NCBI GenBank assembly: GCA_036267475.1
Contig: DATAVZ010000098.1
Span: 4,974 to 68,973 of the forward strand
Reading direction: 5' to 3'
Length of the DNA stretch: 64,000 bases
Source: Terracidiphilus sp.
GTDB lineage: Bacteria; Acidobacteriota; Terriglobia; Terriglobales; Acidobacteriaceae
The notes below the pieces were generated by a model. That model made no database searches, had not been told where the DNA came from, and was given only the letters and a program-made list of their open reading frames with translations. Positions within the stretch are counted from its first letter, which is position 1; each line of letters starts with the position of its first letter. The translations under genes and the position numbers were made by a program. Of this stretch, positions 38,459 to 58,073 are shown one piece after another.

Positions 38459-38521
38459 TTCTTAACGTGGGGTTCCGTGGGGTTGGGCTTCTCTACCGCA
38501 TTCGCTAAGTTCTTTAGAATC

Positions 38522-38597: not shown

Positions 38598-38741
38598 ATT
38601 GGTTGGGTAACCGCTTGGAGGGATCGTTCTTGCGGCCGCGCGGACAGCGAAAATAATGTCCGTACCTCCAAAAATATACCACAGGCACGGCCAAATCGAA
38701 AGGACTGGACGGGACCCGGCTGGCGCTGCGCAGCATTCGAT

Positions 38742-41837: not shown

Positions 41838-42950
41838 ATGAAAATTACCAAGCTTGAGCCGATCATTCTGCATGCGCCCGTGACGCGTGGCGGCATCGCC
41901 GACAGCACCAACACCCTGTCGCACTGGGGCGCGCCCGGCGTTGCCATTCATACAGACACGGGCCTGGTGGGCTACGGATTTTCCGGCACTCATGCTCATC
42001 TGCCCACCGACCGGCTCATTGTGGACTGCATTCTTCTGAGCTACGGCCCGCTGCTGCTCGGTGAGGATCCGCGCGAGGTGCTGGCGCTATGGGAGAAGCT
42101 GCACAAGCAGGCAGAGATCTGCTGGGTTGGCCGCGCCGGCATCACCCACCTGGCGCTCGGCGCAATTGATATTGCGCTGTGGGACTTGAAGGCCAAGGAC
42201 GCGGGCCTGCCGCTTTGGAAGCTTCTGGGCGGCTCGGCGGCAAAAAAGGTGGAAGCCTACAACACCGATGGAGGATGGCTCAACTGGCCGCTCGATACCG
42301 TGGTGTCGGACTGCAGACGCATGGTCGAAGAGGAAGGTTATCGAGCCGTGAAGCTCAAGGTGGGCGGAGCCAGCCCGAGCGAGGATCTCCGCCGCGTGGA
42401 AGCCGTGCGCAGAGCGCTGGGCCCCGAGATTCGCATCATGACCGACGCCAATGGGCGCTGGTCGTTGCCGCAGGCCATCCAGACCGCTGGACGGCTGGTG
42501 GAGTTCGACGTTGCCTGGATCGAGGAGCCCATCTACTTTGACGATGTCGAAGGCCACCGGCGGCTGGCCCAGACGATTCACACGCCGATTGCGCTGGGCG
42601 AGCAGCTCTACACGGCGTCGCACTTCCGCGATTTCATTCATGCGGGCGCCGTTCATTTTGTGCAGCCGGATGTGGTCAGGCTCGCGGGCATCACGGAATT
42701 CTGGCAGGTGGCTGACATGGCGCGCTGCTACAGTCTTCCGGTGGTGCCGCATGTCGGCGACATGTGCCAGGTACACCAGCACCTCTGCTTCGCACACGCC
42801 GCATGCTCGTTGCTTGAATACATTCCGTGGCTGAAAGACTGGATGGCGGACCCGGCGAAGATTGAGGCCGGCTACTACATTGCGCCCGAGGCGCCCGGAG
42901 CGGGAATGACGCCCAATCGAAGGGCGCTTGCCGAGATCAATAGAGTTTGA
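41838..42950 (+). CDS. Mandelate racemase/enolase-superfamily sugar-acid dehydratase
   Basis: GAIDIALWDLKAK, KxK (VKLKVG), metal ligands MTDAN, WIEEP, LGE, then VQPD and VPH. Confidence 0.9.
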   Translation: MKITKLEPIILHAPVTRGGIADSTNTLSHWGAPGVAIHTDTGLVGYGFSGTHAHLPTDRLIVDCILLSYGPLLLGEDPREVLALWEKLHKQAEICWVGRAGITHLALGAIDIALWDLKAKDAGLPLWKLLGGSAAKKVEAYNTDGGWLNWPLDTVVSDCRRMVEEEGYRAVKLKVGGASPSEDLRRVEAVRRALGPEIRIMTDANGRWSLPQAIQTAGRLVEFDVAWIEEPIYFDDVEGHRRLAQTIHTPIALGEQLYTASHFRDFIHAGAVHFVQPDVVRLAGITEFWQVADMARCYSLPVVPHVGDMCQVHQHLCFAHAACSLLEYIPWLKDWMADPAKIEAGYYIAPEAPGAGMTPNRRALAEINRV

Positions 42951-43048: not shown

Positions 43049-43816
43049 ATGCTGCTCAAGGATAAAGTCATCTTTCTCACCGGCGGCTCGACCGGCATCG
43101 GCTGGGAATGCGCCATGGCCTATCGGGCCGAAGGAGCGCGTGTCGTAATCGCGGCGCTCGACGAAGCGGCCACGCTGAAAGCGGCCGCGGAACTGGGTCC
43201 GGATCATCTGGGCATCTTCTGCGATGTGTCCCGCGATGCGGATGTGAAGTCGGCGATCGAGCGCACGCTCGCTCAGTACGGCCGCATCGACGCGGTGCAT
43301 AACAACGCCGGCATCGGTACGCCGGTAAAGGCCATTCACGAGACCACCGACGCCGAATGGGATGCGCTTTTCAACGTCAATTTGAAAAGCCTGCTCCACA
43401 CCACGCGTCACGCGTTTGCCGCGCTCCTGCAAAGCCAGGGTTCCATCCTCAACACGTCCAGCATGGTTGGCGTGATGGGTCAGGAGGCCCATGCGGCCTA
43501 CACCGCGACCAAAGGCGGCATGAACGCGCTCACCAAATCGATGGCCCTCGACTACGCAAAGCACGGCATCCGCGTCAACGCCGTTTGCCCCGCTGGAATC
43601 TGGACACCCATGCTCCGCACCTTCTGCGCCGAGCAGCCCGACCCATCTTCCATGGAGCGTTACCTGGGCGAGATTCACGCGCTTGGCTACTGCCCTGAAG
43701 GCGATGTGATCGCCGACGCATGTGTCTTTCTGCTCTCTGACAAGGCGCGCTTTGTTACCGGCCATATCATGCACGTAAGCGGTGGCGCCGAGCTTGGCTA
43801 TCGCCGGTCGCTTTGA
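43049..43816 (+). CDS. SDR oxidoreductase, candidate L-fucose/aldose dehydrogenase
   Basis: TGGSTGIG, NNAG, YTATK, GIRVNAVCP. Confidence 0.9.
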   Translation: MLLKDKVIFLTGGSTGIGWECAMAYRAEGARVVIAALDEAATLKAAAELGPDHLGIFCDVSRDADVKSAIERTLAQYGRIDAVHNNAGIGTPVKAIHETTDAEWDALFNVNLKSLLHTTRHAFAALLQSQGSILNTSSMVGVMGQEAHAAYTATKGGMNALTKSMALDYAKHGIRVNAVCPAGIWTPMLRTFCAEQPDPSSMERYLGEIHALGYCPEGDVIADACVFLLSDKARFVTGHIMHVSGGAELGYRRSL

Positions 43817-43862: not shown

Positions 43863-44717
43863 ATGAATGCCATGGCGCACGAGTGCCACGAATGCATAGA
43901 TGCGCACCACCACCTCTGGAACTATCGCCCCGAAGACTATCCGTGGATGGGCGAGGGCATGGAAGTGCTGCGCCGCGATTATCTGCCCACCGACCTTGAA
44001 GAAGTGGCTCGATCCGCCGGAATCACTGGCACTGTTGTTGTGCAAGCGCGGCAAACAACCGAGGAAACGGAATGGCTTGCGGAACTGGCCGCAAAGTCTG
44101 AGTTAATTCGTGGAGTCGTGGGCTGGGCGCCTCTCGTCGATCCGAATGTGGCTGCGGATCTGGAAAGATTCTCGAGCCTTCCCAAGGTAAAGGGCGTGCG
44201 CCACGTGCTACACGATGAGCCGGACCCGTACTATATGTGCCGCGAGGATTTTCATCGCGGCGTGTCGCTTCTGAGCCATTACGGCCTTCGATATGACCTG
44301 TTGATCTTTGCGAGCCACCTGCCGCAGACCATCGAATTTGTAGACAGGCATCCCAACCAGATTTTCATCGTCGACCACATTGCCAAGCCGCGCATTCGCG
44401 AGGGTGTTTTGTCGCCATGGCGAGAAAATCTGAAGGAACTCGCGCTGCGGCAAAACGTGTACTGCAAACTCTCCGGATTGGTAACCGAAGCGCGGTGGAG
44501 TACCTGGAAAGAAGTAGACCTCAAGCCGTATCTGGACGTGGCAATTGAGGCCTTTACGCCGCAGCGCGTCATGTTCGGCTCGGACTGGCCCGTGCTGACG
44601 CTCGCCAGCGGCTATGGGCAGTGGGCGCAGATGGTGAACAATCACATCCGGGAATTCTCTCCCGATGAGCAGCGAAGAATCCTAGCCGGCACCGCGGTAG
44701 AAGCTTATGGGCTCTGA
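43863..44717 (+). CDS. Amidohydrolase-family lactonase (L-fuconolactonase-like)
   Basis: IDAHHHLW, YLPTDL, VVVQA, GVRH, DHIAKP, NVYCKLSGL, MFGSDWPV. Confidence 0.88.
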   Translation: MNAMAHECHECIDAHHHLWNYRPEDYPWMGEGMEVLRRDYLPTDLEEVARSAGITGTVVVQARQTTEETEWLAELAAKSELIRGVVGWAPLVDPNVAADLERFSSLPKVKGVRHVLHDEPDPYYMCREDFHRGVSLLSHYGLRYDLLIFASHLPQTIEFVDRHPNQIFIVDHIAKPRIREGVLSPWRENLKELALRQNVYCKLSGLVTEARWSTWKEVDLKPYLDVAIEAFTPQRVMFGSDWPVLTLASGYGQWAQMVNNHIREFSPDEQRRILAGTAVEAYGL

Positions 44718-44788: not shown

Positions 44789-47452
44789 CTAAAACGAGTT
44801 GCTGGGGTTGCCAAAGGGCGGATGTCCCACCAGCGCCGGATCATACGTGTGCAGGGCAGCCAGCTTTTGTTTCGGAACAAAAGCGTCCCATTTTGTAATG
44901 GGTTGCGGAGCGGGCAATGTCGACTCGGTTTCGAAATGAATGGTCACAATCTGCTGCGGCTTGACTGCGATCTGGTAGCTCGACGCGTGGGGCAGCTCGG
45001 ACTGCGCGCGTCCGGCCAGATCGGTAAGCACTGCACGCTTGTGAGGCAGCATCAACTTGACCGTCGCCGTTCCCGCATGGCCGTAGCACTCCGCCATGCG
45101 CAGCTCAATGTGATTCTCTTCGCACCGCAAGGCCTCCACGATCACGTTGCCCGATGTCTCCAGAATCGATCGGGGCGTTTGAGCGGCGCGATTGCCGATA
45201 AGGATGGGCGGGCAGTTATATTCCCAGGCCATTTGCGGAATCAGCGCCTGCTCCCACGATTCGTCATGTGGGCAGAGCGCATAGCAGATCATGTGCTTGC
45301 CCTTCCCGCTCAGCCAGGAGTTGGCGTATCCGTGATATTGATTCTCGGCGTTGAGCAGATAGATGGTCGGCGTTCGCCCGTCGATCTCGCGCCCGGTTGC
45401 TCCGCGGTCGAAGATTGCAAATCCTCCTCCACCGGAAACCTCGTAGTCGATCCAGCGGACCGTTGGAACGATACCGCGCGTCCAGCCATGCAGATCGGGG
45501 TTTTGTCCGGTCCATGATCCGTGGGAAAATCCATAGGGAATGCCGCGGCGGATGCTCTCTATGTCCATGGCCAGAGGAAACTCGGAAACAACAACCGTAT
45601 AGTCCGGAACGTCGTTGAGTTCGGTTTCAAAGTCGATGCGCGGACTGTCGTGATAGAGACGGAAGGTTCGGCGAATGGCTCCGCCTCCATAGAATGTGCC
45701 TTTGGCTTCGACGGTGTAGGCCATGGCGCCGCGAGATAGCTGGACAGACGACTGCCCATCGCTGGACGTGCCCAACTGCATACGCTCCGGACGCGGAGCC
45801 ATAAAATCGGCAGGCGAGTCTTCTTTCTTCTTCGGTCGTTCGGCGACAATCACATTCGCCGGGCCTGCCAGCAATTCGCGTCCCGACTTCTTGAGCTTGA
45901 GGCTGGTAATAGCTCCCGTGTGGCGATCCAGGCGGACAGAATAATATTTGGTGTCCAGGGTCTCGGGCAGATCGACCACAGTGGGCTGTTCCGCAGCTCG
46001 ATGCGCCAACTTCCAGCCGCCTACGCTCACCGACGGCATATCGACCCGGCAAAGCACAGTTCCGTCCGGTAGCAATTCGCCGCCAGCCCCTTCGATCGTT
46101 GTTCCGGCAGGCAAATGCAAACTCACCGGATCGCTGCGCTTCCAGTTGAGCTGGTTGAACAAGCCAATGCCATCGCCATCGGGAACAAGAGCGCTGCCCG
46201 CACTCTGAACAGCGCCGCCGGTCGTTTCGTCCACCCAGTTAAAGCGGTCCTGTACGTCCCACGACTCCTTACTCGTAAAGACCATGCCGCCTGCCGAGCC
46301 CCACAGCGTATTGCGATCCATGTTCAGACACATCAGCGTCCAGCACCCTTGCAGATCCTGAACCGGGTAATCGTGCTGTGCATCGAGATGCGCGAACGAG
46401 CAGAGCATTTCTGCGGCCTGCAGCGTTTGCTCGCTGTACCGGTAGCGGGTCTTCACCTCGTAGTTCTCGATCCAGAAGGCATCGAACGAATACGCCGTTC
46501 CGCCTTCAAAAGTAGGAATCGAGATGTCTCCCGATTGAATCCGCTGAAGGATCGGGTCGAGATAGTCGCTGAGGGTTGCGAACGTGAGCGGGTTGGCCTT
46601 GTGCGCATCCTTCCACTGTTGCAGTAGCAGCGTGGGATACTCCTTGAGCGCTGGCGCAAGGGAATAATCGCCGGAGCCGCACAGAACCAGAATCGGAGCG
46701 CCATCGGGCGTGACGGCCGCCTTCTTCTGGAACAGCGCTTCGAGATCGTTCAACCCGCTTTCATCGAGTGGCTTGGTGGCTGTGAAAATGGAAGTGGCTT
46801 CGGCATAGTGGCCGGGGCAGAGCGTTACGATGCGTGAGCCATCTGGAGAAACCGACCAGAACATGGTCTTGCCGGTGGGATTCTTGCGCGTATAAACCAT
46901 CGCCTCAAAGCCCAGGCCCGCGGCTATCTGCGCCATCTGATCGTGTACGCCGCAGGTATCGATGTTCCATCCATATTTCGGCTTGATTCCAACCACTTTT
47001 TCATACCACCGCAGACCCTCCACTCCAAGCCGGACAAGCGCTTCGCCGCCGGACAAATCGATGGTGGACTCAAGAAAGTATCCGGCCACCAGCTCCACGC
47101 GCTTCTCCCGCACGCGCTGTTCCAGCTCCGCTACGCGGTCGGGTTTGAAGTTCATGATGGCGACGAAGTTATTTGCCTCGGAGAAGAGAAACCTATAGTG
47201 CGGGTCATCCCGGACCCGGTCGAGCTGATTCAGGTAGCTGTTGGCGCAGTAGACTCTCTCTCTTGAGAAAGTGGTGAGCCACCCGCAGCTCGCCGGATGA
47301 AAATTCGGCACCAGGAATACTTCCCGAGTCTCCGCGGGTTGCGCGTGGCCTGACGCCGGCAAACCTGCGCCGATAGCAGTAATGGCAATGGCGGTTACGA
47401 ACTGACGCCGGTTGAGAGGCGGGTTGAAAACGGGATCGCCCGAATCCTGCAT
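44789..47452 (-). CDS. Tat-exported, divergent GH38-like glycoside hydrolase
   Basis: NRRQFV Tat motif; GH38 layout (VFLVPNFH...GW, GGEALVR, WNIDTCG, C-terminal beta domains). Confidence 0.75.
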   Translation of the reverse strand: MQDSGDPVFNPPLNRRQFVTAIAITAIGAGLPASGHAQPAETREVFLVPNFHPASCGWLTTFSRERVYCANSYLNQLDRVRDDPHYRFLFSEANNFVAIMNFKPDRVAELEQRVREKRVELVAGYFLESTIDLSGGEALVRLGVEGLRWYEKVVGIKPKYGWNIDTCGVHDQMAQIAAGLGFEAMVYTRKNPTGKTMFWSVSPDGSRIVTLCPGHYAEATSIFTATKPLDESGLNDLEALFQKKAAVTPDGAPILVLCGSGDYSLAPALKEYPTLLLQQWKDAHKANPLTFATLSDYLDPILQRIQSGDISIPTFEGGTAYSFDAFWIENYEVKTRYRYSEQTLQAAEMLCSFAHLDAQHDYPVQDLQGCWTLMCLNMDRNTLWGSAGGMVFTSKESWDVQDRFNWVDETTGGAVQSAGSALVPDGDGIGLFNQLNWKRSDPVSLHLPAGTTIEGAGGELLPDGTVLCRVDMPSVSVGGWKLAHRAAEQPTVVDLPETLDTKYYSVRLDRHTGAITSLKLKKSGRELLAGPANVIVAERPKKKEDSPADFMAPRPERMQLGTSSDGQSSVQLSRGAMAYTVEAKGTFYGGGAIRRTFRLYHDSPRIDFETELNDVPDYTVVVSEFPLAMDIESIRRGIPYGFSHGSWTGQNPDLHGWTRGIVPTVRWIDYEVSGGGGFAIFDRGATGREIDGRTPTIYLLNAENQYHGYANSWLSGKGKHMICYALCPHDESWEQALIPQMAWEYNCPPILIGNRAAQTPRSILETSGNVIVEALRCEENHIELRMAECYGHAGTATVKLMLPHKRAVLTDLAGRAQSELPHASSYQIAVKPQQIVTIHFETESTLPAPQPITKWDAFVPKQKLAALHTYDPALVGHPPFGNPSNSF

Positions 47453-47695
47453 TGGAGACGCCTTTCCATTCAACAAAAAAAGATTTGCTCTGCAAAAGCC
47501 AGACGGTGACAGAGTTTACTTTCTGGAAATATCCGGTGTCAATGGAATTCTGGCAAGGTGCCGGCGGAAGCCAGGGCCACGCTTGTGCCCGGTAGAGCCG
47601 TTTGGGCCTCACCAGCGACCGGAATCCAGAATGCCATTGCCACATGCGGCGAACGGTTGACACGCGCTTGTCCCGGTGCGTATCGTTCGGCGGTT

Positions 47696-49054
47696 ATGAG
47701 CGCTTATTGGCCAAGTCGGCGGGACTTCATAAAAACCGCCATCGCGAGTTCCTGCGTTCCTTTCCTTTCAAACGTGGCGTGGGCAGAAACCGCAGAAGAT
47801 GAGCGAATCCGGTGGTATCGGGATGCGAAGTTCGGAATGTTCATGCACTGGGGCCCTTATTCGCTGGCGAGCGTTGAGGCTTCGTGGCCGATTATGCGGC
47901 CCACACCGGGCGGAATCACGCAGGCCGAATACGAGGCGCTGCCGCAGCGGTTTAATCCCACTCTCTTCGATCCGGAAGCCTTTGTCGACCTGGCGCGTTC
48001 GGCCGGCCAGAAATATATGGTCTTCACCACCAAGCACCATGATGGCTTTTGCATGTTCGACTCGCAATACACCAGTTACAAGATTACGAACGCGCCCTAC
48101 GGCAAGGACATTGTCAAGCAGCTATCAGACGCTTGCCTGAAAGATGGAATGCCGCTGGGCTTCTACTACTCGCCGCCCGACATGCACAACCCCAACTTTC
48201 GCGACACCAGCAAGCCGGCAAGCGAGAACTGGCATGGGCAGCCTGAGCGCCCCGAGTGGCCGCTCTATCTGCAATATTTGAAGTTGCAGGTAACCGAACT
48301 GCTCACGCGCTATGGGCCGGCGGCGCTGGTATGGTTCGATGGACTCAACGATCAGGCGAAATACGATGGCGTGGATGTGGTGAACATGATTCATCGCCTT
48401 CAGCCGGCGACGCTCGTGAACGATCGCATCGGAGTGCCCGGAGATTTTGAGACGCCCGAGCAGTTCATTCCCAAGGCGATTCCGACCATGGGAGTACACA
48501 TATCCGGGACCAATGCCGAGGCTTCGGAGCAGCTCAAGAACACGGTTCCCGCAGCGCAGGACTTTCGCCTGTGGGAGACCTGCATGACCATCAACCACAC
48601 CTGGGCTTATAACAAGAACGACCATGACTTCAAATCGTCGCAAACTCTGATCAGAAGCCTGGTGGAAGTCGCCAGCCGCGGCGGAAATTTTCTGCTGAAT
48701 GTAGGGCCTGAGCCAACCGGACAGATTCAGCCGGAATTTCAGCAGCGCCTGCGCGCAATCGGAGACTGGCTGAGGCTGAATGGGGACTCTATCTACGGGT
48801 CCACATACGGACCCATTCAGGGCGTGTCGAGCCTGCGCACAACGGCAAAAGACAAGTCAGTCTATGTGCATCTGTTCGATTGGAATGGAACGTCCTGCGA
48901 ACTCCCCGATTTCAACACTAAGCTGATTTCAGCCCGATTGCTCGCCAACGGAAGACCGCTTACCTTTCGTCAGGATGAGGCAGGTCTGCGCATCGACGTT
49001 CCCGCCCAGGCTCCCGATCCAAATGTAAGCGTGATCGCGCTGGAAACGTATTAG
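47696..49054 (+). CDS. Tat-exported alpha-L-fucosidase (GH29)
   Basis: SRRDFI; WYRDAKFGMFMHWGPYS, FTTKHHDGFCMF, LVWFDG, WETCMT, RGGNFLLNVGP. Confidence 0.93.
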   Translation: MSAYWPSRRDFIKTAIASSCVPFLSNVAWAETAEDERIRWYRDAKFGMFMHWGPYSLASVEASWPIMRPTPGGITQAEYEALPQRFNPTLFDPEAFVDLARSAGQKYMVFTTKHHDGFCMFDSQYTSYKITNAPYGKDIVKQLSDACLKDGMPLGFYYSPPDMHNPNFRDTSKPASENWHGQPERPEWPLYLQYLKLQVTELLTRYGPAALVWFDGLNDQAKYDGVDVVNMIHRLQPATLVNDRIGVPGDFETPEQFIPKAIPTMGVHISGTNAEASEQLKNTVPAAQDFRLWETCMTINHTWAYNKNDHDFKSSQTLIRSLVEVASRGGNFLLNVGPEPTGQIQPEFQQRLRAIGDWLRLNGDSIYGSTYGPIQGVSSLRTTAKDKSVYVHLFDWNGTSCELPDFNTKLISARLLANGRPLTFRQDEAGLRIDVPAQAPDPNVSVIALETY

Positions 49055-49077: not shown

Positions 49078-49614
49078 TTAAGAGTCGGACTCGGTCTCGC
49101 CGGCGCGAAACTTCTCCGCATCGCGATAAGTGACCGTGAGCAGATGTTCGCAATACAGAACCAGCTCGCCCTCGTCTTTGAAGACCTCATAGGAGGCTTT
49201 GACCAGGCCCATGGCTGGGTATTTAGGCTTCTTTTCGAGATTGGTCCGGATCGTATAGATCGTGTCGCCGATAAAGACCGGCCGGATGAAGCGAAGCCGG
49301 TCGTAGCCGTAGCTGAAGGAGTTGACGCAGTTCGTCGCTACCAGTCCGAGGCCCATGCTGAACACCATGGCGCCGGCCACAAGCCGCCGGCCGAAGACAC
49401 CATCTGCCTTCGCAAAAATCTCATCGGCGACATAGGGATGCATGTCAAGCACAAGCGCATTGAATTGCATGCACTCGCCCTCTGAAATGGTTCGTCGAAT
49501 CGAGCGGATGCGATGACCGACCTCGAAGTCCTCGTAGAACCAGTTTTCTGCATTCCACACCGGTATGTTGCGGTGGGCGGCCGGATCGGGATTCGGATTC
49601 TGAAAGCGACTCAC
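49078..49614 (-). CDS. MaoC-family hot-dog dehydratase
   Basis: [37 protein letters not shown]; start uncertain (GTG assumed). Confidence 0.85.
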
Positions 49615-49858
49615 TTGTTCCGCCTGTTGCCGCCCGGCTGAGGCGGCCCTTTCTGCAAGCCGGTATTTTGAGGGTAGATGTGCCTTTTTTATCCCGGCTG
49701 TCACACAACTTGTGTCCGCCGGGTTTGATTTACCGCCCTTGTCCGCGCGCGCGAAAAATCCAGACCGGCGCTAGCATAACAGCAAAAGCATAACATTGTG
49801 TTGCATCTGGAGCCTCTTCTATGCAAAACTTTTTTTCTTGAAGGAGAAAGCTGTCCGG

Positions 49859-50926
49859 ATGAGTATTTCAGGCCTGCGTCTTCCGAAAGTTCCCCGGCCC
49901 ATTGTCATGATTGGCGCCGGAGGCATTGCCGGCGATGCGCACCTGCCTGCCTACCGCAAGGCCGGGTTCGAAGTGGCGAGTATCTTCGATTTGGACCGCG
50001 GCCGCGCCATGACCACGGCGGAGCGGTTCGGGATCCGTTCTACGCCGGAGAGTCTGCGCCAGGCGGTCGCCTCGGCGCCTCTCGATGCGGTGTTCGATAT
50101 TGCCACGCCTGCCGGCGCCTATCTGCGGATTCTGAGCGATCTGCCGGACGGGCGCGGGGTCCTGCTGCAAAAGCCGCTTGGGGAAAATCTGGACGAAGCC
50201 CGCAAGATTCGTGAGTTGTGCCGGGCTAAAAGATTGAAGGCCGCGGTCAACTTTCAGTTGCGCTACGCTCCTGCAATTCTGGCGGCCAAAGACATGATTG
50301 CCGCCGGCAGCATTGGGCAGTTGCATGACATGGAAGTCAGAGTAACCGTGTTCACTCCGTGGCATCTATGGACATTTCTGGAGTCGATTCCGCGAGTCGA
50401 AATTCTTTACCATTCAGTGCACTACATCGATCTGATCCGCTCCATACTTGGCGATCCGGTGAGCGTTTACGCCAAGACAGTGAAGCACCCGAAGATGGAA
50501 AAACTGGCTTCAACCCGGTCCAACATCATTCTCGATTACGGCGATACCATGCGCGCCAATATAACAACGAATCACGGACACGAGTTCGGCGTCCGTCACC
50601 AGGAATCCTACGTGAAGTGGGAAGGAACCGGCGGTGCGATCAAGACGCGACTGGGCTTACTGATGGACTATCCCCAGGGCGCGCCGGATGAGTTTGAATA
50701 CTGCATTCTCGATCCCGGGCGTGCCGCCGAGTGGAAGACGCGCGCCATCGACGGTACGTGGTTTCCCGATGCGTTCATCGGGCCCATGGCGGATCTGATG
50801 TGCTTTCTGGACGGTCTTAGCGATGAGTTGCCCACGTCGGTTGAGGATGCTTATAAAACCATGGCGATCGTAGAGGCCGCCTACCAGTCGAGCGTCTCCG
50901 GCGGAACCAGGATCGGTTATGACTGA
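49859..50926 (+). CDS. Gfo/Idh/MocA family oxidoreductase
   Basis: IGAGGIAGDAHLPAY, LLQKP, AVNFQLRY, HSVHYID. Confidence 0.9.
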   Translation: MSISGLRLPKVPRPIVMIGAGGIAGDAHLPAYRKAGFEVASIFDLDRGRAMTTAERFGIRSTPESLRQAVASAPLDAVFDIATPAGAYLRILSDLPDGRGVLLQKPLGENLDEARKIRELCRAKRLKAAVNFQLRYAPAILAAKDMIAAGSIGQLHDMEVRVTVFTPWHLWTFLESIPRVEILYHSVHYIDLIRSILGDPVSVYAKTVKHPKMEKLASTRSNIILDYGDTMRANITTNHGHEFGVRHQESYVKWEGTGGAIKTRLGLLMDYPQGAPDEFEYCILDPGRAAEWKTRAIDGTWFPDAFIGPMADLMCFLDGLSDELPTSVEDAYKTMAIVEAAYQSSVSGGTRIGYD

Positions 50927-52082
50927 GCTTAGAGGAATCACCTGGGATCACACCCGTGGTTATGTTCCACTCATCGCAACCGCGCAGCGGTTTGCAGAGC
51001 TGCATCCGGATATTTCCATCCAATGGCACAAGCGTTCGCTGAAGGAATTTGGCGATCTCGCGCTCGATCGACTCGGGCAGGAATTCGACCTGCTGGTCAT
51101 CGATCATCCCTTTGTGGGCATGGCGGCGGAGCGCAGGTTGCTGGCGCCGCTGGAGCCCTATATTTCCGCCGCGTTCCTGAAAGATCAGGCCCAGCACTCC
51201 GTGGGAAAGTCGAACGCGAGCTATCTGTATAACGGCAGTCAATGGGCGCTGGCGATTGATACCGCTGCTCCCATAAGTGGGTGGCGCTCCGATCTTCTCG
51301 CGAACGCCGGAGTCTCTGCGCCATCGACATGGTCCGAGCTGCTCACTCTGGCCCGCCGTGGACTGGTGGTGATTCCGGGCGTTCCGATCGACACGTTGAT
51401 GCACCTGTACATGCTGTGCATTGCCCTGGGCGAGGAGCCGTTCTCCAAACCCAATTGCTTTGCCTCGCACAGGGTCGCCATCGAAGCGCTCGAAATGTTG
51501 CGCGAACTGGCGGGGCTGGTCTCTGCTGAGTGCTCCCAATTCAATCCGATCAAGGTGTGGGAGTTGCTGGCCGTTAGTGAGAGCGTAGCCTACTGCCCCT
51601 TTGCCTACGGCTATTCCAACTACTCACGTGATGGCTACGCGAAGCAATGGCTCGAGGTCGGTGGCGTGATTTCATTTGACGGGCGCGCGCGCTTCCGCAC
51701 AACGCTGGGCGGCGCCGGACTCGCAATTTCCTCGCATTGCCGTCACATCGAGAGCGCCGCGGCGTACTGCCGGTACGTTGCGGGCGCTGAATGTCAGAGT
51801 CATCTCTACTTCGATTCGGGCGGACAGCCCGGACATCGCTCCGCATGGAGCAATGTGGAAGTGAATCGAAGAAGTCATAACTTTTTCCGCAATACCCTGC
51901 AAACTCTGGATGAAGCCTGGCTTCGCCCACGCTGGAGCGGCTACCACGATCTCCAGAACAAGGCCGCAAAAGTGGTTCACCAATGTGTGTGGGGAAAACA
52001 GGACCCCGGCGACGTTGTGTCCACGTTGAATCGGCTGGCTGGCGAAGTCGAACACAGAGATGTCATGGAGGAGCGCGCATGA
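50919..52082 (+). CDS. Solute-binding-protein-fold protein without a signal peptide
   Basis: LRGITWDHTRG, DLLVIDHP, LGGAGLAIS; start overlaps the upstream stop (ATGACTGA); no hydrophobic N-terminus. Confidence 0.8.
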   Translation: MTELRGITWDHTRGYVPLIATAQRFAELHPDISIQWHKRSLKEFGDLALDRLGQEFDLLVIDHPFVGMAAERRLLAPLEPYISAAFLKDQAQHSVGKSNASYLYNGSQWALAIDTAAPISGWRSDLLANAGVSAPSTWSELLTLARRGLVVIPGVPIDTLMHLYMLCIALGEEPFSKPNCFASHRVAIEALEMLRELAGLVSAECSQFNPIKVWELLAVSESVAYCPFAYGYSNYSRDGYAKQWLEVGGVISFDGRARFRTTLGGAGLAISSHCRHIESAAAYCRYVAGAECQSHLYFDSGGQPGHRSAWSNVEVNRRSHNFFRNTLQTLDEAWLRPRWSGYHDLQNKAAKVVHQCVWGKQDPGDVVSTLNRLAGEVEHRDVMEERA

Positions 52083-53260
52083 AACCCCTTGAAGGGCTGC
52101 TGGTGCTGGATTTCAGCCAGTTTCTTGCCGGCCCCGCAGCCGCATTGCGCTTAGCCGATCTGGGCGCTCGTGTCATCAAGGTCGAGCGGCCAGGCAAGGG
52201 CGACCTGTGCCGTCAACTGTACATCACCAACCTCGAGATTGAAGGCGATAGCACACTCTTCCATTCCATCAATCGCAATAAGCAAAGCCTGGCCGTGGAT
52301 CTGAAGAAAGATGAGGATCGCGAGCTGGTTCGCAAACTCATATCCCGCGCCGACGTGTTGATTCAGAATTTTCGGCCAGGCATCATGCAGCGTCTGGCTT
52401 TCGATTACGAATCTGTGCGTGCTTACAACCCGCGCATTGTGTACGGAGAAGTGAGCGGCTACGGCAGCGAGGGACCCTGGCGGAACAAGCCGGGGCAGGA
52501 TCTGCTGGCGCAGTCGCTGTCTGGGCTGGCATGGCTCAACGGCAATGCGGATCAGCCGCCGGTGCCGTTCGGGCTCTCGGTTGTCGATCTGTTTGCGGGC
52601 GCTCATCTGGTGCAGGGAATTCTTGCCTGTCTGGTGCGGCGGTCCGTATCGGGCAACGGAGGCCATGTGGAGGTGAGCCTTCTTGAGTCCATTCTGGATG
52701 CGCAGTTTGAGCTTCTCACCACGTATTTGAACGACGGCGGAAAGCCGCCGCAGAGAAGCGCCGTGAACAATGCGAATGCATATCTTGGCGCCCCGTATGG
52801 CCTGTACGAAACAAAGGATGGTTATATCTCGCTGGCTATGGGATCTGTAACCCAGCTCGGCGATCTGCTCGGCTGTAAAGCTCTCTTGCAGTTCTCTGAT
52901 CCCAAAAGCTGGTTTGCAGAGCGCGATACGATCAAGGCAATCCTGGCAGAGCACTTGAAGACGCAAGAGACGGAGCACTGGCTCAAAATTCTCGAGCCGG
53001 AAGATATCTGGTGCTCGGATGTCTTCACCTGGTCCCGACTGGTGCAGCATGAAGGTTTCCAGGCGCTCGACATGATTCAGGAGGTGGTGTGCCACGGCGG
53101 CTCGCAGTTGAAAACCACCCGCTGCCCGATACGTATCGATGGAGAGCTCTACAAGTCATCGCAGGCCGCACCCAGGGTTGGACAACACAGCAGTCAGATC
53201 ATCGAAGAATTTTCTTTGAAGGCAGAAGCATCCGCGGTAGAGAGAAAATTCGATGAATAA
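52079..53260 (+). CDS. CaiB/BaiF class III CoA-transferase
   Basis: PLEGLLVLDFSQFLAGP, ADLGARVIKVERP, NRNKQSLAVDLK, DVLIQNFRPG, PGQDLLAQ. Confidence 0.93.
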   Translation: MKPLEGLLVLDFSQFLAGPAAALRLADLGARVIKVERPGKGDLCRQLYITNLEIEGDSTLFHSINRNKQSLAVDLKKDEDRELVRKLISRADVLIQNFRPGIMQRLAFDYESVRAYNPRIVYGEVSGYGSEGPWRNKPGQDLLAQSLSGLAWLNGNADQPPVPFGLSVVDLFAGAHLVQGILACLVRRSVSGNGGHVEVSLLESILDAQFELLTTYLNDGGKPPQRSAVNNANAYLGAPYGLYETKDGYISLAMGSVTQLGDLLGCKALLQFSDPKSWFAERDTIKAILAEHLKTQETEHWLKILEPEDIWCSDVFTWSRLVQHEGFQALDMIQEVVCHGGSQLKTTRCPIRIDGELYKSSQAAPRVGQHSSQIIEEFSLKAEASAVERKFDE

Positions 53261-54512
53261 ATCCGGGGAAAATCGCGAGCAGACACTTCGAATTGCCGTT
53301 CGCAAGTTTGGACCGTTCGAGACTGCGCTGCAGAAGCAGTGGAAATGCTTCGAACAGCGGATGCGGACAGGCTTCGAACTCGATGCAATCTCTCTCGATC
53401 TCGAGCCTCTGCATCGATTGCTGTTCGAACAGCAGGACCTGGATCGCGGCGAGTGCGATCTCGCGTTGGTGAGTACAGACTGGCTCGCGGAAGCGAATGA
53501 ATCCGGCGGCTTGATGGACTTGAGCCCGCTGCTCGCGTCTGCGCCGCCAGAGGGATATCCAGATGCATGGTCTGAATCGCTGCTGCGCCTGCAAAGCTTC
53601 GACGGCCGTGTTCTCGGATTGCCTTATCACGATGGGCCGGAGTGCCTCATCTATCGCCGGGATCTGTTCGATTGCGCCGCGGAGCAGCAACGATTTTTGG
53701 AGCAGTATAGAGAGCCGCTGCATGTGCCTCGCACCTGGAGTGAGTTTCGGCGAGTCGCACGTTTCTTCACCCGTCCCGACGAAGGGCTCTACGGGACTGT
53801 GTTCGCAGGCTATCCGGATGGACACAACACGGTCTACGACTTTTGTCTCCAGTTATGGAGCCGCGGCGGCCAACTCTTCGACGCGGAGCGGCGCATATTG
53901 CTCGATACTGCAGAGGCGACCGCAGCGCTCGAATATTATCGATCGCTGTGTCATGACGCGGGCGCAATTCATCCCGACTATGCTTCGTTTGACTCGGTCA
54001 AGTCGGGCCTGGCGTTTGCCGCCGGTGAAATTGCGATGATGGTCAACTGGTTTGGCTTCGCGGCGATGTCGGAAACGATTGACGAGTCGCAGGTGAAAGG
54101 CAAGACAGCAATCGCTGCCATTCCATCGGACCAGGGCCATGGCATTTCCTTGAATGCGTATTGGATCATCGGCATCGTAGCGGGTACCCCGCATGCCGAT
54201 GTGGCCTGGAAATTCCTGTGTCACTGCGCCAGCGCGGAGATGGATAAGTTGCTGACGCTTGAGGGCGGAATCGGCTGCCGAAAATCGACTTGGTCCGATG
54301 AACAGGTAAACGCGAGCATTCCTTATTACCATCGGCTTGCGCAGCTTCATGAAAATGCCCGCGAGCTTCCTCGCATAAGTAATTGGTCGAAGTTAGCCGC
54401 CGTAGTGGATAGGATGGTCCTCGATGTTATGCAGACCAACGATCCGGTCGCCCACATTACCAAGCGAGCGCAGGAGCAGGCGTCAAAGGTGCAGTTGGAG
54501 GGCGTCCTTTAG
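53253..54512 (+). CDS. Second solute-binding-protein-fold (sugar-binding family 1-like) protein without a signal peptide
   Basis: DLSPLL, FDGRVLGLPY, LIYRRDLF, PRTWSEF, FAAGEIAMMVNW; start overlaps the upstream stop. Confidence 0.8.
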   Translation: MNKSGENREQTLRIAVRKFGPFETALQKQWKCFEQRMRTGFELDAISLDLEPLHRLLFEQQDLDRGECDLALVSTDWLAEANESGGLMDLSPLLASAPPEGYPDAWSESLLRLQSFDGRVLGLPYHDGPECLIYRRDLFDCAAEQQRFLEQYREPLHVPRTWSEFRRVARFFTRPDEGLYGTVFAGYPDGHNTVYDFCLQLWSRGGQLFDAERRILLDTAEATAALEYYRSLCHDAGAIHPDYASFDSVKSGLAFAAGEIAMMVNWFGFAAMSETIDESQVKGKTAIAAIPSDQGHGISLNAYWIIGIVAGTPHADVAWKFLCHCASAEMDKLLTLEGGIGCRKSTWSDEQVNASIPYYHRLAQLHENARELPRISNWSKLAAVVDRMVLDVMQTNDPVAHITKRAQEQASKVQLEGVL

Positions 54513-54600
54513 GAAATCTCTGTATAAGTCGACGACTTGAAGGGTACGGCTTCGGCCAGTACAGGAAGCGCAAACGAATTGAGCGAGCTATAGGCGAACC

Positions 54601-55407
54601 ATGACCGAAAGCGACAGATCGAAGAAAGCGAATAAGAAATCTCGACGCGATTACGCGGTACCGGCGCTGGATAAGGGCTTGGACGTTCTCGAGCAACTAG
54701 CCGCGGCCGCATCCCCGCTATCGCTTAGCGAGATTGCGCGGGCCATTGGACAGACGCCGAGCGCCGTCTTTCGTTTGTTGAACCGGCTGGAGGGGCGCTC
54801 CTATGTGACAAAGGAGCCGATGTCCGGGCAATATAGCTTGTCTCTCAAGCTACTGGAATTGGCGCATACTTATCCCCCGGTGGAGCATTTGACTCGCGTT
54901 TCCGGCCGTCTCATGCGGGAGTTAGCCGATTCGGTTCGTGAGTCTGTACACCTGAGCGTTCTCGATCACGGACGTCTTGTGGTGCTGATGGATGTTGCCA
55001 GCCCACTGCGCGTGCGCTTCGCTCACCAGGTAGGGAGCCAGTTTTCGCCGCTAAGGACGAACTCCGGCCGACTGCTGCTCGCCTATCTGAATCCGGAGGA
55101 GCTTGTGAAATATCTTTCCGAAGATCCGGACTATGCGGCGCTTTCCAGGACCAGGCAGGACTCCGTTCACGAGCAGTTGAAAAACATACGACGGAACCGC
55201 TACGCTGTTTCCTTCAGCGAGGAGAGGGTGGGCATGAAGGATATCGCCGTGCTGGTTGGGAATCCCGCGGTAGGCTCTACGGCAGCGCTCGCAATTGCGT
55301 GCCTCGGAGGCCTCAGAGACAAGGCGGAGGTGAGCAGGTTAGCTGCCGCGCTGCAGGAGTGCGCGGCCAGAATCACGGCATCCATGGGGTTAAGTTATGA
55401 GCGCTAG
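54601..55407 (+). CDS. IclR family transcriptional regulator
   Basis: [47 protein letters not shown]. Confidence 0.93.
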
Positions 55408-55846
55408 CAGATACTTTGAAGACTATGAGATTGGCGCGTCCCGCGAGACTCTTGGTAGAACGATTACCGAGGCCGACATCGTTCTGCACGCAGGACAGAC
55501 AGGGGACTTTTATCCGCACCACATGGATGCCGAGTGGTGCAAGACGCAGCCTTTCGGCCAGCGGATTGCGCACGGCACATTGATCTTCAGCATTGCAGTT
55601 GGAATGAGTGCGGGAGAAGTGAACCCCGCCAGCTTCAGCTATGGATACGACCGGCTGCGCTTTATCAAGCCCGTGTTCATTGGAGACACTCTGCACACCA
55701 GGGTTACGATCAAGGAGAAAAAGGACGCACCCAAGTCGCCCCGGCACGGTATCGTGGTGGAGTTGTGCGAGGCAATCAATCAACAGCAGCAAGTTGTGCT
55801 GGCGTGTGAACATTTGCTGATGGTCACACGCCGCGGAAGTGAATGA
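55397..55846 (+). CDS. MaoC-family dehydratase (second copy)
   Basis: [48 protein letters not shown]. Confidence 0.9.
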
Positions 55847-55888: not shown

Positions 55889-57691
55889 TCAAGCCAGAGT
55901 TACCTTCAGAGCGGCCGCATAGTCGCTCGCCGGACGATATCGATCCGGCAACTCTACCCGAAGGCTATCCGCCGACTGCTTCCACTTCAGCTTTTGCTCA
56001 GTGCCTATCAGTTCCACATGAGCAATCTTTCCGGGATTCGTAGCAGCTGACGTCCCCAATGCGCGCACAACGACTGGTTTTGTCGGCCATCCCAGCACCA
56101 GCGCATACACCACCGTATTGGCTTTGTTGCGTGTGAATCGAACATCTTCCGAACCCAACGCGGAGATGCTGTTGCCCTGAAACGACCCGCTCTTTACCGC
56201 GTGTGGTCCTTCGCCATAAATTTTCCAGGGCCGGGTCTCGTAGATCGCTTCGCCATTCACCTGCATCCACGCCGTCACGCCATCCAGAACCGCTATCTCC
56301 TTGCTGTCGATGGTCCCATCCGGTTTTCCCGGCACATTCAGAATGAAAGTGCCATTCTTGCTCACCGTGTCGATCATCCAGTGAATCACATCGCGCGGCG
56401 GAAGGTATCCGCCATATTCGCCGTCTTTTTCATAGAGGGCGCGATTGTAATGCCACTCGCCGATGCAGGTTTCCGACTGCCATGCATACTCCATGATCTT
56501 GTCGGTCAGCCCCCGCTCGTAGTCAGCGATCAGAGTCTTGGCCAATCGGTCCGGAACCTGCTTGCCATTCAGAACCGCCTCCATCTTGCCGCCATGGGTC
56601 GCGAGATTGTGATTGTAGAAGTACGCGGCGATATTCATTCCGGCCCATCCCAGTGGAACCAGAGAATTATCGAAGTAGAGAAGGTCGGGATTGTGCTGAT
56701 CGATCAGATCGCGCGTGCGATCGTAGAAGTTCTTGACATACGATGTATCCGGCAACGCATCTTTCGGATGTTTCACTCCGTAGACTCGATGCGGATCCAG
56801 CCCCTGCCACCATTGGTCCTTGCCTTCGTTCATCCTTAAATCGCCATCGTAAGGAACGCCCGAGTACGGGCCGCTCGTATCGGCTCCGTGCGAGGGCTGG
56901 AACCACCACCAGTTTCTGGCCTGATGCACGGTCACGCCAAACCGCATGTCCTGCTTGCGCGCCGCCGCGGCCCATGTGCCCACCACGTCGCGATGCGGGC
57001 CGAGCGCAGCCGCGTTCCAGGGTTGATGCTTCGAGTCCCAGGTGTCGAAGCCGTCATGGTGATTGGCAAGCGCGATGAACAGTCTGGCGCCGGCCTTCTT
57101 ATAGCGGGAAATCAGTTCCTCGGGTTCCCAGTTCAGCAGCGTCCATTGCGGGCAAAGATCCTTGTAGCCAAATCGCGACTGCGGGCTATAGTGTTCGAGA
57201 TGGTATTTATAGTCCTTGGAGCCTTCCTGATACATCGCGCGGGCATACCAGTCCCCGGCTTCCGGTACGCATTGTGGGCTCCAGTGCGCCCAGATTCCAA
57301 ACTTCGCGTCGCGATACCACTCCGGGGCGTCATACTGCTGCATCGAATCCCAGGTGGGCTTGTAAGGTCCATCGCCGGCGAGATCGGGTATGGGCGAATT
57401 CATTGGAACCCCATCCCAGGAACCGCCCGGAACCGGCAGCGCCGGAGGCTCGCCCCACTCCGCTGGATGCCAGCTCGCATTGTCGAGCTTGATCTGTACG
57501 ATCTTGCCGTCCTTCAGCGCATAGAACATCCGTTCATCGGGCAGCTTGCCGCAGAATGCCGCATAATCTTCCACGAGTCGATTGAAGTCGGGCGGGAACG
57601 CCGATGATTCGCCCTGTGCGTGCGCACGGAGCGCCTGTGCAGTGGCCGTTGCCATAACAAGTTTGCAGAAATCCCTGCGTCGCAAGTGCAT
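55889..57691 (-). CDS. Tat-exported alpha-L-fucosidase (GH29)
   Basis: LRRRDF; WYRDAKFGIWAHW, NHHDGFDTW, LLYFD, VSKNGTFILNVP. Confidence 0.9.
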   Translation of the reverse strand: MHLRRRDFCKLVMATATAQALRAHAQGESSAFPPDFNRLVEDYAAFCGKLPDERMFYALKDGKIVQIKLDNASWHPAEWGEPPALPVPGGSWDGVPMNSPIPDLAGDGPYKPTWDSMQQYDAPEWYRDAKFGIWAHWSPQCVPEAGDWYARAMYQEGSKDYKYHLEHYSPQSRFGYKDLCPQWTLLNWEPEELISRYKKAGARLFIALANHHDGFDTWDSKHQPWNAAALGPHRDVVGTWAAAARKQDMRFGVTVHQARNWWWFQPSHGADTSGPYSGVPYDGDLRMNEGKDQWWQGLDPHRVYGVKHPKDALPDTSYVKNFYDRTRDLIDQHNPDLLYFDNSLVPLGWAGMNIAAYFYNHNLATHGGKMEAVLNGKQVPDRLAKTLIADYERGLTDKIMEYAWQSETCIGEWHYNRALYEKDGEYGGYLPPRDVIHWMIDTVSKNGTFILNVPGKPDGTIDSKEIAVLDGVTAWMQVNGEAIYETRPWKIYGEGPHAVKSGSFQGNSISALGSEDVRFTRNKANTVVYALVLGWPTKPVVVRALGTSAATNPGKIAHVELIGTEQKLKWKQSADSLRVELPDRYRPASDYAAALKVTLA

Positions 57692-58073
57692 ACCCTCTCA
57701 ATCTCTGGATCTGTTGCCGATGTTGTTCTGTTGCCGAGGTTGTTTTGTTGCCGTGATCGAAGCGTCTTCTGCGCAATTCCGCGCCTGAATCAACTATGTG
57801 GACGAACTATATTGAATGCGCCGAAGGATTGTCAACGATACAGTTATCGATATCTAAAGGGCCGCGTGCCGATCAGGATGCCTCGACAGCGGCGACCGCA
57901 GGGTCTTGCTTGTCGTGACCGATGGGCTCGACGTGATCAATGCGATCGACGCGATCAAACCGGCAATCGTGTTCTCCAAACAGGCGCGGGATGTACGCCA
58001 GGCGAGTGCGTGCCACGATTCACTCAGCAGAATTTTTTGTGAGCACGGCGCCCCGCTTGTTAGATTCACAAGC

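Follow-up and report, generated by a model that had tools for sequence, protein, structure and literature searches.

What do proteins with the fold of a sugar-binding protein do inside an operon of enzyme genes? This question is raised by a stretch of 64,000 nucleotides from Terracidiphilus sp. (Acidobacteriota; GenBank assembly GCA_036267475.1, contig DATAVZ010000098.1, positions 4,974 to 68,973 of the forward strand; hereafter the window, meaning this whole stretch), which comes from an uncultured soil bacterium and whose sequence was present only in soil metagenome DNA runs. Here, the genes of two signal-less proteins with a MalE-type solute-binding protein (SBP) fold, SBP1 and SBP2, are interleaved with those of a Gfo/Idh/MocA oxidoreductase (Gfo) and a family III coenzyme A (CoA) transferase of the CaiB/BaiF type (CaiB), and are accompanied by an IclR-family regulator and two MaoC hot-dog proteins, MaoC1 and MaoC2. 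We hold with good confidence that these genes form a cytoplasmic, non-transport catabolic module linked to fucose. As a whole reading, to which we give an even chance, they would constitute a cytoplasmic, CoA-thioester-dependent branch of the oxidative catabolism of L-fucose or a close relative of it (a 6-deoxyhexose or L-galacto-configured sugar), with the SBP folds acting in it as substrate-binding partners or as enzymes.

As read from the sequence, the Gfo and SBP1 genes overlap by 8 nucleotides (ATGACTGA), SBP1 and CaiB by 4 (ATGA), and CaiB and SBP2 again by 8 (ATGAATAA), which suggests that translational coupling of the SBP genes with the enzyme genes serves matched production. Further downstream, the IclR and MaoC2 genes share 11 nucleotides, and the ATG of Gfo is preceded by a GGAG 9 nucleotides upstream. 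An earlier note on this DNA, made from its letters alone, had described the four genes from Gfo to SBP2 as translationally coupled, followed by an IclR-MaoC pair, with a second MaoC divergent and the whole set lying between two fucosidases of glycoside hydrolase (GH) family 29; the overlaps and the Pfam assignments (Table 1) bear out this layout in full. The divergent MaoC1/Gfo promoter region also contains an inverted repeat, CCCGGCTGTCACA-n5-TGTGTCCGCCGGG, which is a possible operator for the IclR regulator, and a scan for promoters and terminators gave no signal above shuffled expectation.

Both SBP open reading frames (ORFs) open at the first ATG, GTG or TTG that follows an in-frame stop codon, so a longer N-terminus is impossible, and the N-termini, MTELRGITWDHTRGY in SBP1 and MNKSGENREQTLRIAVRKF in SBP2, have no hydrophobic core, in agreement with the view of the earlier note that no signal peptide could be hidden there. 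In the AlphaFold models, the first β-strand starts from residue 2 in SBP1 and from residue 11 in SBP2. Export signals are recognisable in this organism, because the neighbouring GH29 fucosidases carry clear twin-arginine-type leaders (SRRDFIK... and RRRDFCK...; the upstream enzyme begins with MSAYWPSRRDFIKTAIASS). A survey of 85 loci, comprising about 80 SBP2 and about 50 SBP1 orthologues, gave the same picture: all of these proteins start a few residues ahead of strand 1, and no signal-peptide-like hydrophobic 12-mer, lipobox or membrane anchor was found among the roughly 130 sequences, while two ABC-linked (ATP-binding cassette) homologues encoded in the same Chloroflexi loci possess classical signal peptides. 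The best 120 relatives of each protein are of query-like length (404-433 amino acids for SBP2 and 363-402 for SBP1), out of relatives that number in the thousands for either protein in the database. Sequence and comparison together indicate that both SBP-fold proteins are cytoplasmic, independent of the type of transporter that the host uses, and that the export signal of the ancestral sugar-binding fold has apparently been lost in both. By the property of export, neither the proteins of the window nor their roughly 130 orthologues belong to the ABC solute-binding proteins.

The other property that defines this class, a cognate permease and ATPase, is equally absent. No homologue of an ABC permease or ATPase was found in the 64-kb window by tblastn with ABC seeds and a scan for the LSGGQ signature. 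The earlier note had stated that the window holds no permease or ATPase gene at all, which stands for ABC genes and fails for a RhaT-family symporter and an amino-acid permease (Table 1). We further took a census by tblastn of the neighbourhoods of 54 loci for which 20 kb of sequence or more was available, counting genes up to 10 kb either way from SBP2. Permeases of the CUT1 type occur in only three of them, all from Chloroflexota, and each is accompanied by its own exported SBP or lipoprotein; RhaT is present in 29, and a FucP-like transporter of the major facilitator superfamily in three. Moreover, the module of a Croceibacterium plasmid is accompanied by a CUT2 ABC system, to which a separate ribose-type binding protein belongs, and in Bacteroidota the module lies inside SusC/D-type loci. 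The RhaT-family symporter is likely to be the uptake system of the module. It is very improbable that the SBPs still serve transport, either by an unrecognised export to a distant ABC system or as a cytoplasmic sink at RhaT. Their fold is nearest to that of sugar-transport SBPs, RhaT is a frequent companion as counted above, and SBP2 directly precedes two permease genes in one Anaerolineae locus; however, this locus encodes its own lipoprotein SBP, a signal peptide, lipobox or membrane anchor is lacking in every orthologue surveyed, the window has no ABC genes, the module is found with four types of transporter and also in Bacteroidota and a haloarchaeon, and its tightest linkage is to CaiB, Gfo and MaoC rather than to a permease.

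A relative of SBP2 is encoded by at least 519 species representatives, which belong to Acidobacteriota, Chloroflexota, Planctomycetota, Verrucomicrobiota, Latescibacterota, Bacteroidota and Balneolota; further carriers, known from plasmid records, are an alphaproteobacterium and the haloarchaeon Halostagnicola, and the spread covers nine or more phyla, the haloarchaeon included. The closest relatives (72% identity) are those of Granulicella and other Acidobacteriaceae. In the census, CaiB and MaoC are each found near SBP2 in 45 loci, Gfo in 42, SBP1 in 38 and an IclR gene in 26, and GH38 adjoins the module in 12. SBP1 lies directly 5' of CaiB on the same strand in 49 of 54 SBP1 occurrences, CaiB is followed by SBP2 on the same strand 38 times, and SBP2 by Gfo 17 times. 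Start/stop overlaps are also seen in Rufibacter, Persicobacter and Croceibacterium. Because the gene set, its order and its overlaps are repeated across phyla, the arrangement is more than chance, and the cluster holds together as a unit from Acidobacteriota to Bacteroidota, Verrucomicrobiota, the alphaproteobacterium and the haloarchaeon. The outcomes that the earlier note had named as fatal to its interpretation and that could be looked for by comparison (orthologues with signal peptides and beside ABC permeases, or a cluster that is not kept together) were thus not observed, and the interpretation gains support. Some variation exists: two MaoC copies are common in related acidobacterial loci, the Bacteroidota loci have two CaiB copies, and some of the latter have gained genes for an RraA-like aldolase, a zinc-dependent alcohol dehydrogenase and a short-chain dehydrogenase/reductase (SDR). 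On these comparative grounds, the SBP folds are inherited together with Gfo, family III CoA-transferases and MaoC proteins (one or two of each of the latter two). The module is ancient, widespread and uncharacterised; our literature searches turned up neither the gene set nor operons of this kind with signal-less MalE-type proteins, nor any account of sugar-acid CoA esters, and the GapMind paper and its supplements do not mention these genes.

Both proteins are members of the SBP_bac_1 fold, with Pfam scores of 36.1 bits (SBP1) and 94.4 bits (SBP2) against a cutoff of 26. They are distant paralogues of each other (25% identity in a profile-profile alignment). The AlphaFold model of SBP1 has a pLDDT (predicted local distance difference test) of 93 and was matched by Foldseek to liganded MalE3, SmoF and the trehalose/maltose-binding protein with template modelling (TM) scores of 0.84-0.86 and a root-mean-square deviation of about 2.9 Å, and the model resembles a closed MalE-like binder; SBP2 gave the same matches with lower TM scores, and the Foldseek probability to MalE-type structures was 1.00 for both. 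By sequence, the best match of SBP2 in the Protein Data Bank (PDB) is Thermotoga MalE3 (1e-24), and the proteins most similar to SBP1 are those that bind alpha-glycosides and trehalose/maltose. Enzyme-like structural neighbours were looked for by Foldseek against the PDB, which returned only binding proteins and fusions to maltose-binding protein. A transfer of the ligand from the exported SBP of Sinorhizobium meliloti was also considered and dropped, as this protein is 22% identical to SBP2 and no closer to it than MalE3.

Over 25 diverse signal-less members, which share 38-60% identity, SBP2 has 54 near-invariant positions. The polar residues R17, D189, H191, N192, N265 and S248 are found in the cytoplasmic clade only and are replaced in every exported relative examined, while H126, D69, D137 and R343 also occur in exported relatives, namely the lipobox-bearing P0247, P0281 and the SBPs of Chloroflexi. 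P0247 and P0281, the nearest exported relatives, which are 39% and 32% identical to SBP2 and carry a lipobox or a membrane anchor, keep the Y-H-D-G and C-R segments and have neither the D-G-H-N nor the N-W-F-G-F motif, and these differences mark the point at which the cytoplasmic clade diverged. The clade-specific residues may belong to a catalytic site or reflect a new moiety of the ligand. A metal or Fe-S site formed by cysteines was rejected, since C131, C198 and C342 are invariant in close relatives and not in the wider set.

These residues bear on the first alternative, in which the SBP folds have become enzymes in the manner of thiaminase I, THI5 or cyclohexadienyl dehydratase and supply a step missing from the cluster, either the opening of fucono-lactone (possibly onto CoA) or the cleavage of a 2,4-diketo-3-deoxy acid, for which the classical pathway uses a FAH hydrolase, and which we consider a doubtful but serious explanation. 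The near-invariant positions, including those replaced in exported relatives, amount to enzyme-level conservation from bacteria through archaea. In addition, the genes of the classical route are rare beside the module (lactonase in 2, FucD in 6 and the FAH-family hydrolase in 3 of the 54 loci), no aldolase for C-C cleavage was found in the window and no FAH hydrolase either, the latter by tblastn with the S. meliloti FAH gene, and in Rufibacter the six-gene core stands almost alone between SusC/D and RhaT, its only extras being a DUF5703 protein and one hypothetical protein. However, the top structural matches are all plain binders, with no enzyme of this fold near the top, and the cysteines invariant in close relatives are not conserved in the wider set, which speaks against a Cys-based metal or Fe-S site. 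A simple replacement of the classical enzymes does not fit the window and the haloarchaeon, both of which hold SBP2 together with a lactonase-like amidohydrolase and an enolase-superfamily (MR/MLE) dehydratase. Fusions to unrelated enzyme and regulator domains suit a binding module better.

Such fusions were searched for among 1.8 billion representative proteins. In P0251 (Streptomyces sp. B6B3, WP_347587819.1; 823 amino acids), an SBP2-like domain is joined to a Gfo/Idh/MocA domain by a linker rich in Pro, Thr and Gln; in P0421 (579 amino acids, 14 members), it follows an N-terminal VOC/glyoxalase domain; and in P0384 (573 amino acids), a more distant SBP2-like domain is linked to a cupin. 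Moreover, at least 16 representative clusters, including P0342, P0348, P0354 and P0374, comprise proteins of about 740-757 amino acids with a LacI helix-turn-helix, a Peripla_BP_1 effector domain and, at the C-terminus, an SBP_bac_1 domain that shares 27-32% identity with SBP2; these proteins are cytoplasmic repressors with a second, MalE-type ligand-binding domain. Since the SBP2-like domain has been appended to different enzymes and regulators, it behaves like a ligand-binding module. A further apparent fusion, of IclR_C with SBP2 (P0423), contains an internal natural start and a frameshifted stretch and was discarded as an artefact.

The LacI fusions, together with the IclR gene that accompanies nearly half of the modules in the census and that of the window, are what speaks for cytoplasmic sensors like AmiC, an amide sensor homologous to periplasmic binding proteins; with the sugar or a pathway intermediate as ligand, they would control IclR or the activity of the enzymes. 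We regard this role as improbable, because both of the two paralogues are translationally coupled to enzyme genes and not to the regulator, an IclR gene is missing from the surroundings of about half of the loci, IclR proteins have an effector domain of their own, and the sole IclR_C-SBP2 fusion is likely a frameshifted read-through. As to gene linkage, the partner of SBP1 is CaiB, and those of SBP2 are Gfo and MaoC. Overall, we place a substrate-clamp partner slightly above an enzyme, and a sensor or a transport protein well below; a catalytic role of the SBP folds themselves is nearly as likely as the clamp role.

The enzymes of the proposed CoA chemistry are as follows. CaiB scores 340 bits on CoA_transf_3 and covers the full profile (positions 1-366 of 366), and its segment GQDLLAQSLSG aligns with AYDTIIQAMSG of YfdE and GYDFVVQAESG of the PDB entry 10uh, which corresponds to the Asp motif G-x-D...Q..SG of YfdE and Frc and to the conserved segment Y/Q-D-x3-Q-x2-SG; in published work on Frc and YfdE, this Asp is the nucleophile. 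MaoC2, which scores 84.5 bits against Pfam MaoC and matches the S. meliloti MaoC structure 4ffu at 8e-61, carries the Asp-x4-His hydratase motif (G-D-F-Y-P-H-H), as defined from PhaJ-type hydratases. Because these catalytic motifs are kept, both the CoA-transferase and MaoC2 look active. MaoC1 is 43% identical to MaoC2 and is missing the hydratase His, its segment L-D-M-H-P-Y-V being aligned with D-F-Y-P-H-H of MaoC2, and is probably the non-catalytic partner of MaoC2 in a heterodimer of the kind formed by HadA/HadC-type subunits. The substrates are less sharply defined by family models. The nearest NCBIfam models of CaiB are succinate-glutarate, oxalate and mesaconate CoA-transferases, and the best of these matches reached 221.7 bits against a cutoff of 750, with all others far below their cutoffs too; Gfo possesses both its N-terminal Rossmann domain and its C-terminal alpha/beta domain, and none of the NCBIfam equivalogs reached its cutoff for this protein.

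The link to L-fucose rests on the neighbourhood of the module. The earlier note had guessed at a breakdown product of a sugar acid or deoxy-sugar, and the deoxy-sugar guess has been strengthened, as orthologues of Gfo and MaoC2 lie in an S. meliloti locus with an annotated L-fuconate dehydratase. GH29 is the commonest glycosidase neighbour of SBP2 (18 of the 54 loci), GH95-type proteins occur near some modules, and sulfatases are found in marine Flavobacteriaceae. In the window, RhaT heads an operon of four genes, the others being the MR/MLE dehydratase, an SDR and an amidohydrolase. The sole NCBIfam match of the amidohydrolase is L-fucono-1,5-lactonase, at 269.9 bits and below the cutoff of 400. 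The SDR, which matches the L-fucose dehydrogenase model among many other models below threshold, is a candidate L-fucose 1-dehydrogenase or keto-deoxy-fuconate 4-dehydrogenase. The MR/MLE dehydratase, whose best NCBIfam match is L-talarate/galactarate dehydratase, below the cutoff, is 39% identical to a 370-amino-acid MR/MLE protein encoded in the S. meliloti locus.

This S. meliloti locus, on pSymB, contains an adjacent Gfo-MaoC pair, 49% identical to Gfo and 67% identical to MaoC2, between a mutarotase (RhaM) and an SDR gene. It also contains an IclR gene, a lactonase-like amidohydrolase, two enolase-superfamily genes, one of which is annotated as L-fuconate dehydratase, a FAH-like ORF recognised by eye, and an exported SBP with ABC permeases, which we take to be the system reannotated as an L-fucose transporter from mutant fitness data. 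The Gfo, MaoC and MR/MLE proteins have only generic names in the source. In the locus record (L090, 7899-9444), the Gfo and MaoC genes are one base apart, and the 360- and 153-amino-acid proteins share one 90% cluster, which hints at a fused reading elsewhere. The second informative locus is that of Halostagnicola, which comprises genes for IclR, MR/MLE, two Gfo proteins, CaiB, an AMP-binding protein of the acyl-CoA-synthetase type directly before SBP2, SBP2 itself and MaoC, as well as an L-rhamnose-type mutarotase, an amidohydrolase and an alpha-L-fucosidase.

A substrate other than L-fucose is unlikely on this evidence, be it a further component of the same glycans, such as L-galactose, D-arabinose, L-rhamnose, 6-deoxy-L-talose or an acidic branched sugar, or, by way of CoA esters, the C3 end product L-lactate or lactaldehyde. 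It would agree with the variety of the neighbours (GH38, GH42, GH78 rhamnosidase, GH127, GH2, GH88 and sulfatases), with a transporter of the rhamnose type and mutarotases annotated as L-rhamnose mutarotase, with the dicarboxylates used by the nearest CoA-transferase models, with the talarate/galactarate match of the MR/MLE gene and with a LarA-like hydroxy-acid isomerase nearby; however, the frequency of GH29, the exclusive match of the lactonase-like gene to the L-fucono-1,5-lactonase family and the company of the S. meliloti orthologues all favour L-fucose.

For a module working on L-fucose, the following course may be proposed. The exported GH29 and GH38 glycosidases would free the sugar, and the RhaT-type symporter would bring it in. 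The sugar would then be oxidised by Gfo, the upstream SDR or both, and converted by the lactonase-like amidohydrolase to the aldonic acid. Family III transferases are known to activate a hydroxy acid for dehydration and then return the CoA, as in CaiB/CaiD, FldA/FldBC and the itaconate/mesaconate transferase with its MaoC protein; because these transferases are classically used in this way, we suggest that a hydroxy acid derived from fucose undergoes dehydration in the form of its CoA thioester. The CaiB-type transferase would turn the hydroxy acid into this thioester, L-fuconate being the best guess and a later keto-deoxy acid being possible, the MaoC1/MaoC2 pair, non-catalytic and catalytic, would take off the β-hydroxyl, and the CoA would be handed back to fresh substrate by the logic of carnitine CaiB/CaiD. 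SBP1 might serve as a ligand-clamping partner of the CoA-transferase that presents or captures the sugar or sugar acid, and SBP2 as the corresponding partner of the dehydrogenase/MaoC unit. The two CaiB copies of Bacteroidota, or the AMP-binding gene of the haloarchaeon, could provide separate activities for priming and for recycling. Whether CoA thioesters of a sugar-derived acid occur as intermediates at all seems to us evenly balanced; this specific division of labour among SBP folds and enzymes is tentative and, taken as drawn, rather unlikely.

Several observations weigh against the CoA-dependent branch of L-fucose catabolism and the clamp role. First, CaiB and a cytoplasmic SBP are both missing from the S. 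meliloti locus, and MaoC may act without a locus-encoded CoA-transferase or on a lactone instead of a thioester; because of this locus, Gfo and MaoC can be seen as the older pair, to which other lineages have added CaiB and the SBP folds. Secondly, the window already has an enolase-superfamily dehydratase, which would make a CoA-dependent dehydration of L-fuconate redundant; the acyl group actually processed may come from further along the pathway, or the lactone may be a substrate of MaoC as well. Thirdly, the pathway drawn here has a gap, since the window yielded neither a FAH hydrolase nor an aldolase for C-C cleavage. As for the SBP folds, the AlphaFold model of SBP2 has only a moderate pLDDT of 77.5, the SBP2-Gfo fusion P0251 is a single sequence that could be a read-through, and D189-G-H191-N192, N265 and R17 look as much like catalytic residues as like binding ones.

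Table 1. Features of the window around the module, with positions counted from the first nucleotide of the window
Feature	Position	Strand	Evidence
LarA-like nickel-pincer-cofactor isomerase (group 22)	38742..40016	-	NCBIfam NF052515, 484.7 bits against cutoff 400; without Pfam match
RhaT-family sugar/proton symporter	40516..41520	+	Pfam RhaT 1.4e-27; NCBIfam RhaT 233 bits, below model cutoff 369
Enolase-superfamily (MR/MLE) acid-sugar dehydratase	41838..42950	+	Pfam MR_MLE_C 2.7e-65
SDR dehydrogenase	43052..43816	+	Pfam adh_short_C2 1e-60
Amidohydrolase_2, L-fucono-1,5-lactonase-like	43863..44717	+	Pfam Amidohydro_2 1.5e-53
GH38 alpha-mannosidase (exported)	44789..47476	-	Precomputed Pfam families of identical gene, locus L001
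GH29 alpha-L-fucosidase, twin-arginine-type signal	47696..49054 (ORF from 47558)	+	Pfam Alpha_L_fucos 1.7e-87; 452-aa gene call (L001)
MaoC1, divergent hot-dog protein	49078..49614 (ORF to 49704)	-	Pfam MaoC 2.9e-11; 178-aa call in L002/L003
Inverted repeat, MaoC1/Gfo intergenic region	49693..49723	.	Arms 13 nt, 85% complementary, spacer 5 nt
Gfo/Idh/MocA NAD(P) oxidoreductase	49859..50926 (ORF from 49796)	+	Pfam, three domains above cutoff
SBP1, signal-less MalE-type binding-protein fold	50919..52082	+	Pfam SBP_bac_1 9.6e-9
CaiB/BaiF (family III) CoA-transferase	52079..53260	+	Pfam CoA_transf_3 1.9e-101, full length
SBP2, signal-less MalE-type binding-protein fold	53253..54512	+	Pfam SBP_bac_1/8, SBP_bac_1 1.6e-26
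IclR-family regulator	54601..55407	+	Pfam HTH_IclR + IclR_C
MaoC2, (R)-hydratase/dehydratase-type hot-dog protein	55397..55846	+	Pfam MaoC 5.8e-24
GH29 alpha-L-fucosidase, C-terminal domain, twin-arginine-type signal	55889..57655 (ORF to 57691)	-	Pfam Alpha_L_fucos 1.6e-78 + Fucosidase_C; 588-aa call (L001)
Amino-acid permease	57906-59420		

Among the neighbours of the module, the gene of the LarA-like isomerase is flanked by those of tRNA-Lys and tRNA-Ser and immediately precedes the RhaT operon; the enzyme is possibly associated with the module, as a racemase or epimerase of an α-hydroxy acid from its pathway. The tRNA-Lys gene (38522-38597) is also the end of a low-GC island (25600-38600; 50-53% GC against 58-63% around it), which encodes a tyrosine integrase (37262-38458), a HK97-type capsid protein (35280-36578) and a prohead protease (34322-35176); these genes identify it as a prophage or another integrated element of phage origin. 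The island is immediately preceded (21494-25242) by the genes of Ku and of a LigD with three domains (phosphoesterase, ligase and primase-polymerase), which by their domains are a bacterial non-homologous end-joining pair. In five loci of Acidobacteriaceae and Verrucomicrobiota (L060, L061, L086, L053 and L073), the module adjoins genes that look like those of a RuBisCO-like protein and a four-carbon acid-sugar kinase, both labelled by the look of their sequences. This pair recalls pathways of the apiose/tetronate type, and a GH127-like gene, identified by Pfam in a representative from L079, is also there.

L-fucose ranks among the major sugars in the glycans of plants, algae (fucoidan), fungi and animals, and the carriers of the module, among them Acidobacteriota, Bacteroidota, Verrucomicrobiota, Planctomycetota and Chloroflexota, are dominant degraders of polysaccharides in soil and sea. 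If the proposal is true, sugar acids would be metabolised as CoA thioesters, a type of pathway not found in the literature searched. Thousands of genes annotated as 'extracellular solute-binding protein' or 'multiple sugar transport system substrate-binding protein' would encode proteins that are neither extracellular nor involved in transport, and such misannotation of the relatives of SBP1 and SBP2 matters for automatic annotation and for transporter-based prediction of substrates. As well, the MalE fold would gain a new cytoplasmic role, relevant to protein evolution and to the design of biosensors and enzymes. That this is the first sugar-acid CoA route, with SBP_bac_1 folds as new enzymes or as obligatory clamp subunits for a CoA-transferase and a dehydrogenase, is a possibility that we place clearly below an even chance. 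The Gfo and MaoC genes of S. meliloti, which have no assigned role in an otherwise well understood locus, belong to a genetically tractable organism.

Compared with the MalE-type ABC sugar SBPs, such as Thermotoga MalE3, the Thermococcus trehalose/maltose-binding protein and Agrobacterium SmoF, SBP1 and SBP2 have the same two-lobe fold at only 13-23% identity. Unlike them, they lack a signal peptide, a lipid anchor and a permease and ATPase of their own, and their genes stand inside an enzyme operon; D-G-H-N (189-192) and N265 set the SBP2 clade apart from the exported MalE-type relatives. Binding-protein folds outside ABC transport are well known from AmiC, thiaminase I, the hydroxymethylpyrimidine phosphate (HMP-P) synthase THI5, cyclohexadienyl dehydratase and the effector domains of LacI and LysR regulators. 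AmiC, thiaminase I, THI5 and cyclohexadienyl dehydratase belong to other subclasses or families of the fold and are precedents in principle only, and none of these repurposed folds was among the top 50 structural matches; no case is known among them of a MalE-type SBP_bac_1 protein that goes with a CoA-transferase or a Gfo dehydrogenase in coupled genes. The LacI-SBP_bac_1 fusions follow the same principle of repurposing.

The classical oxidative, non-phosphorylative L-fucose pathway proceeds through L-fucose dehydrogenase, L-fucono-1,5-lactonase, L-fuconate dehydratase, keto-deoxy-fuconate 4-dehydrogenase and a FAH-family hydrolase. The window shares with it a lactonase-like amidohydrolase, an MR/MLE dehydratase and an SDR, beside a symporter and fucosidases, with all of these family matches below the curated cutoffs; however, the classical pathway has no place for CaiB, MaoC or SBP folds, and its FAH was not found here. 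A parallel for the CoA enzymes is offered by CaiB/CaiD, Ict/Ich and Mct/Mch, in which a family III CoA-transferase is likewise paired with a dehydratase or hydratase, and MaoC2 matches the models of RipB/Ich and mesaconyl-CoA hydratase, as CaiB does those of mesaconate, glutarate and oxalate transferases, far below their cutoffs. The CoA-recycling logic proposed above is that established for the carnitine and itaconate/mesaconate systems. Unlike these carnitine and C5-dicarboxylate systems, the module described here stands in a sugar context, lacks a CitE-type lyase and has two SBP folds and a Gfo dehydrogenase as integral members.

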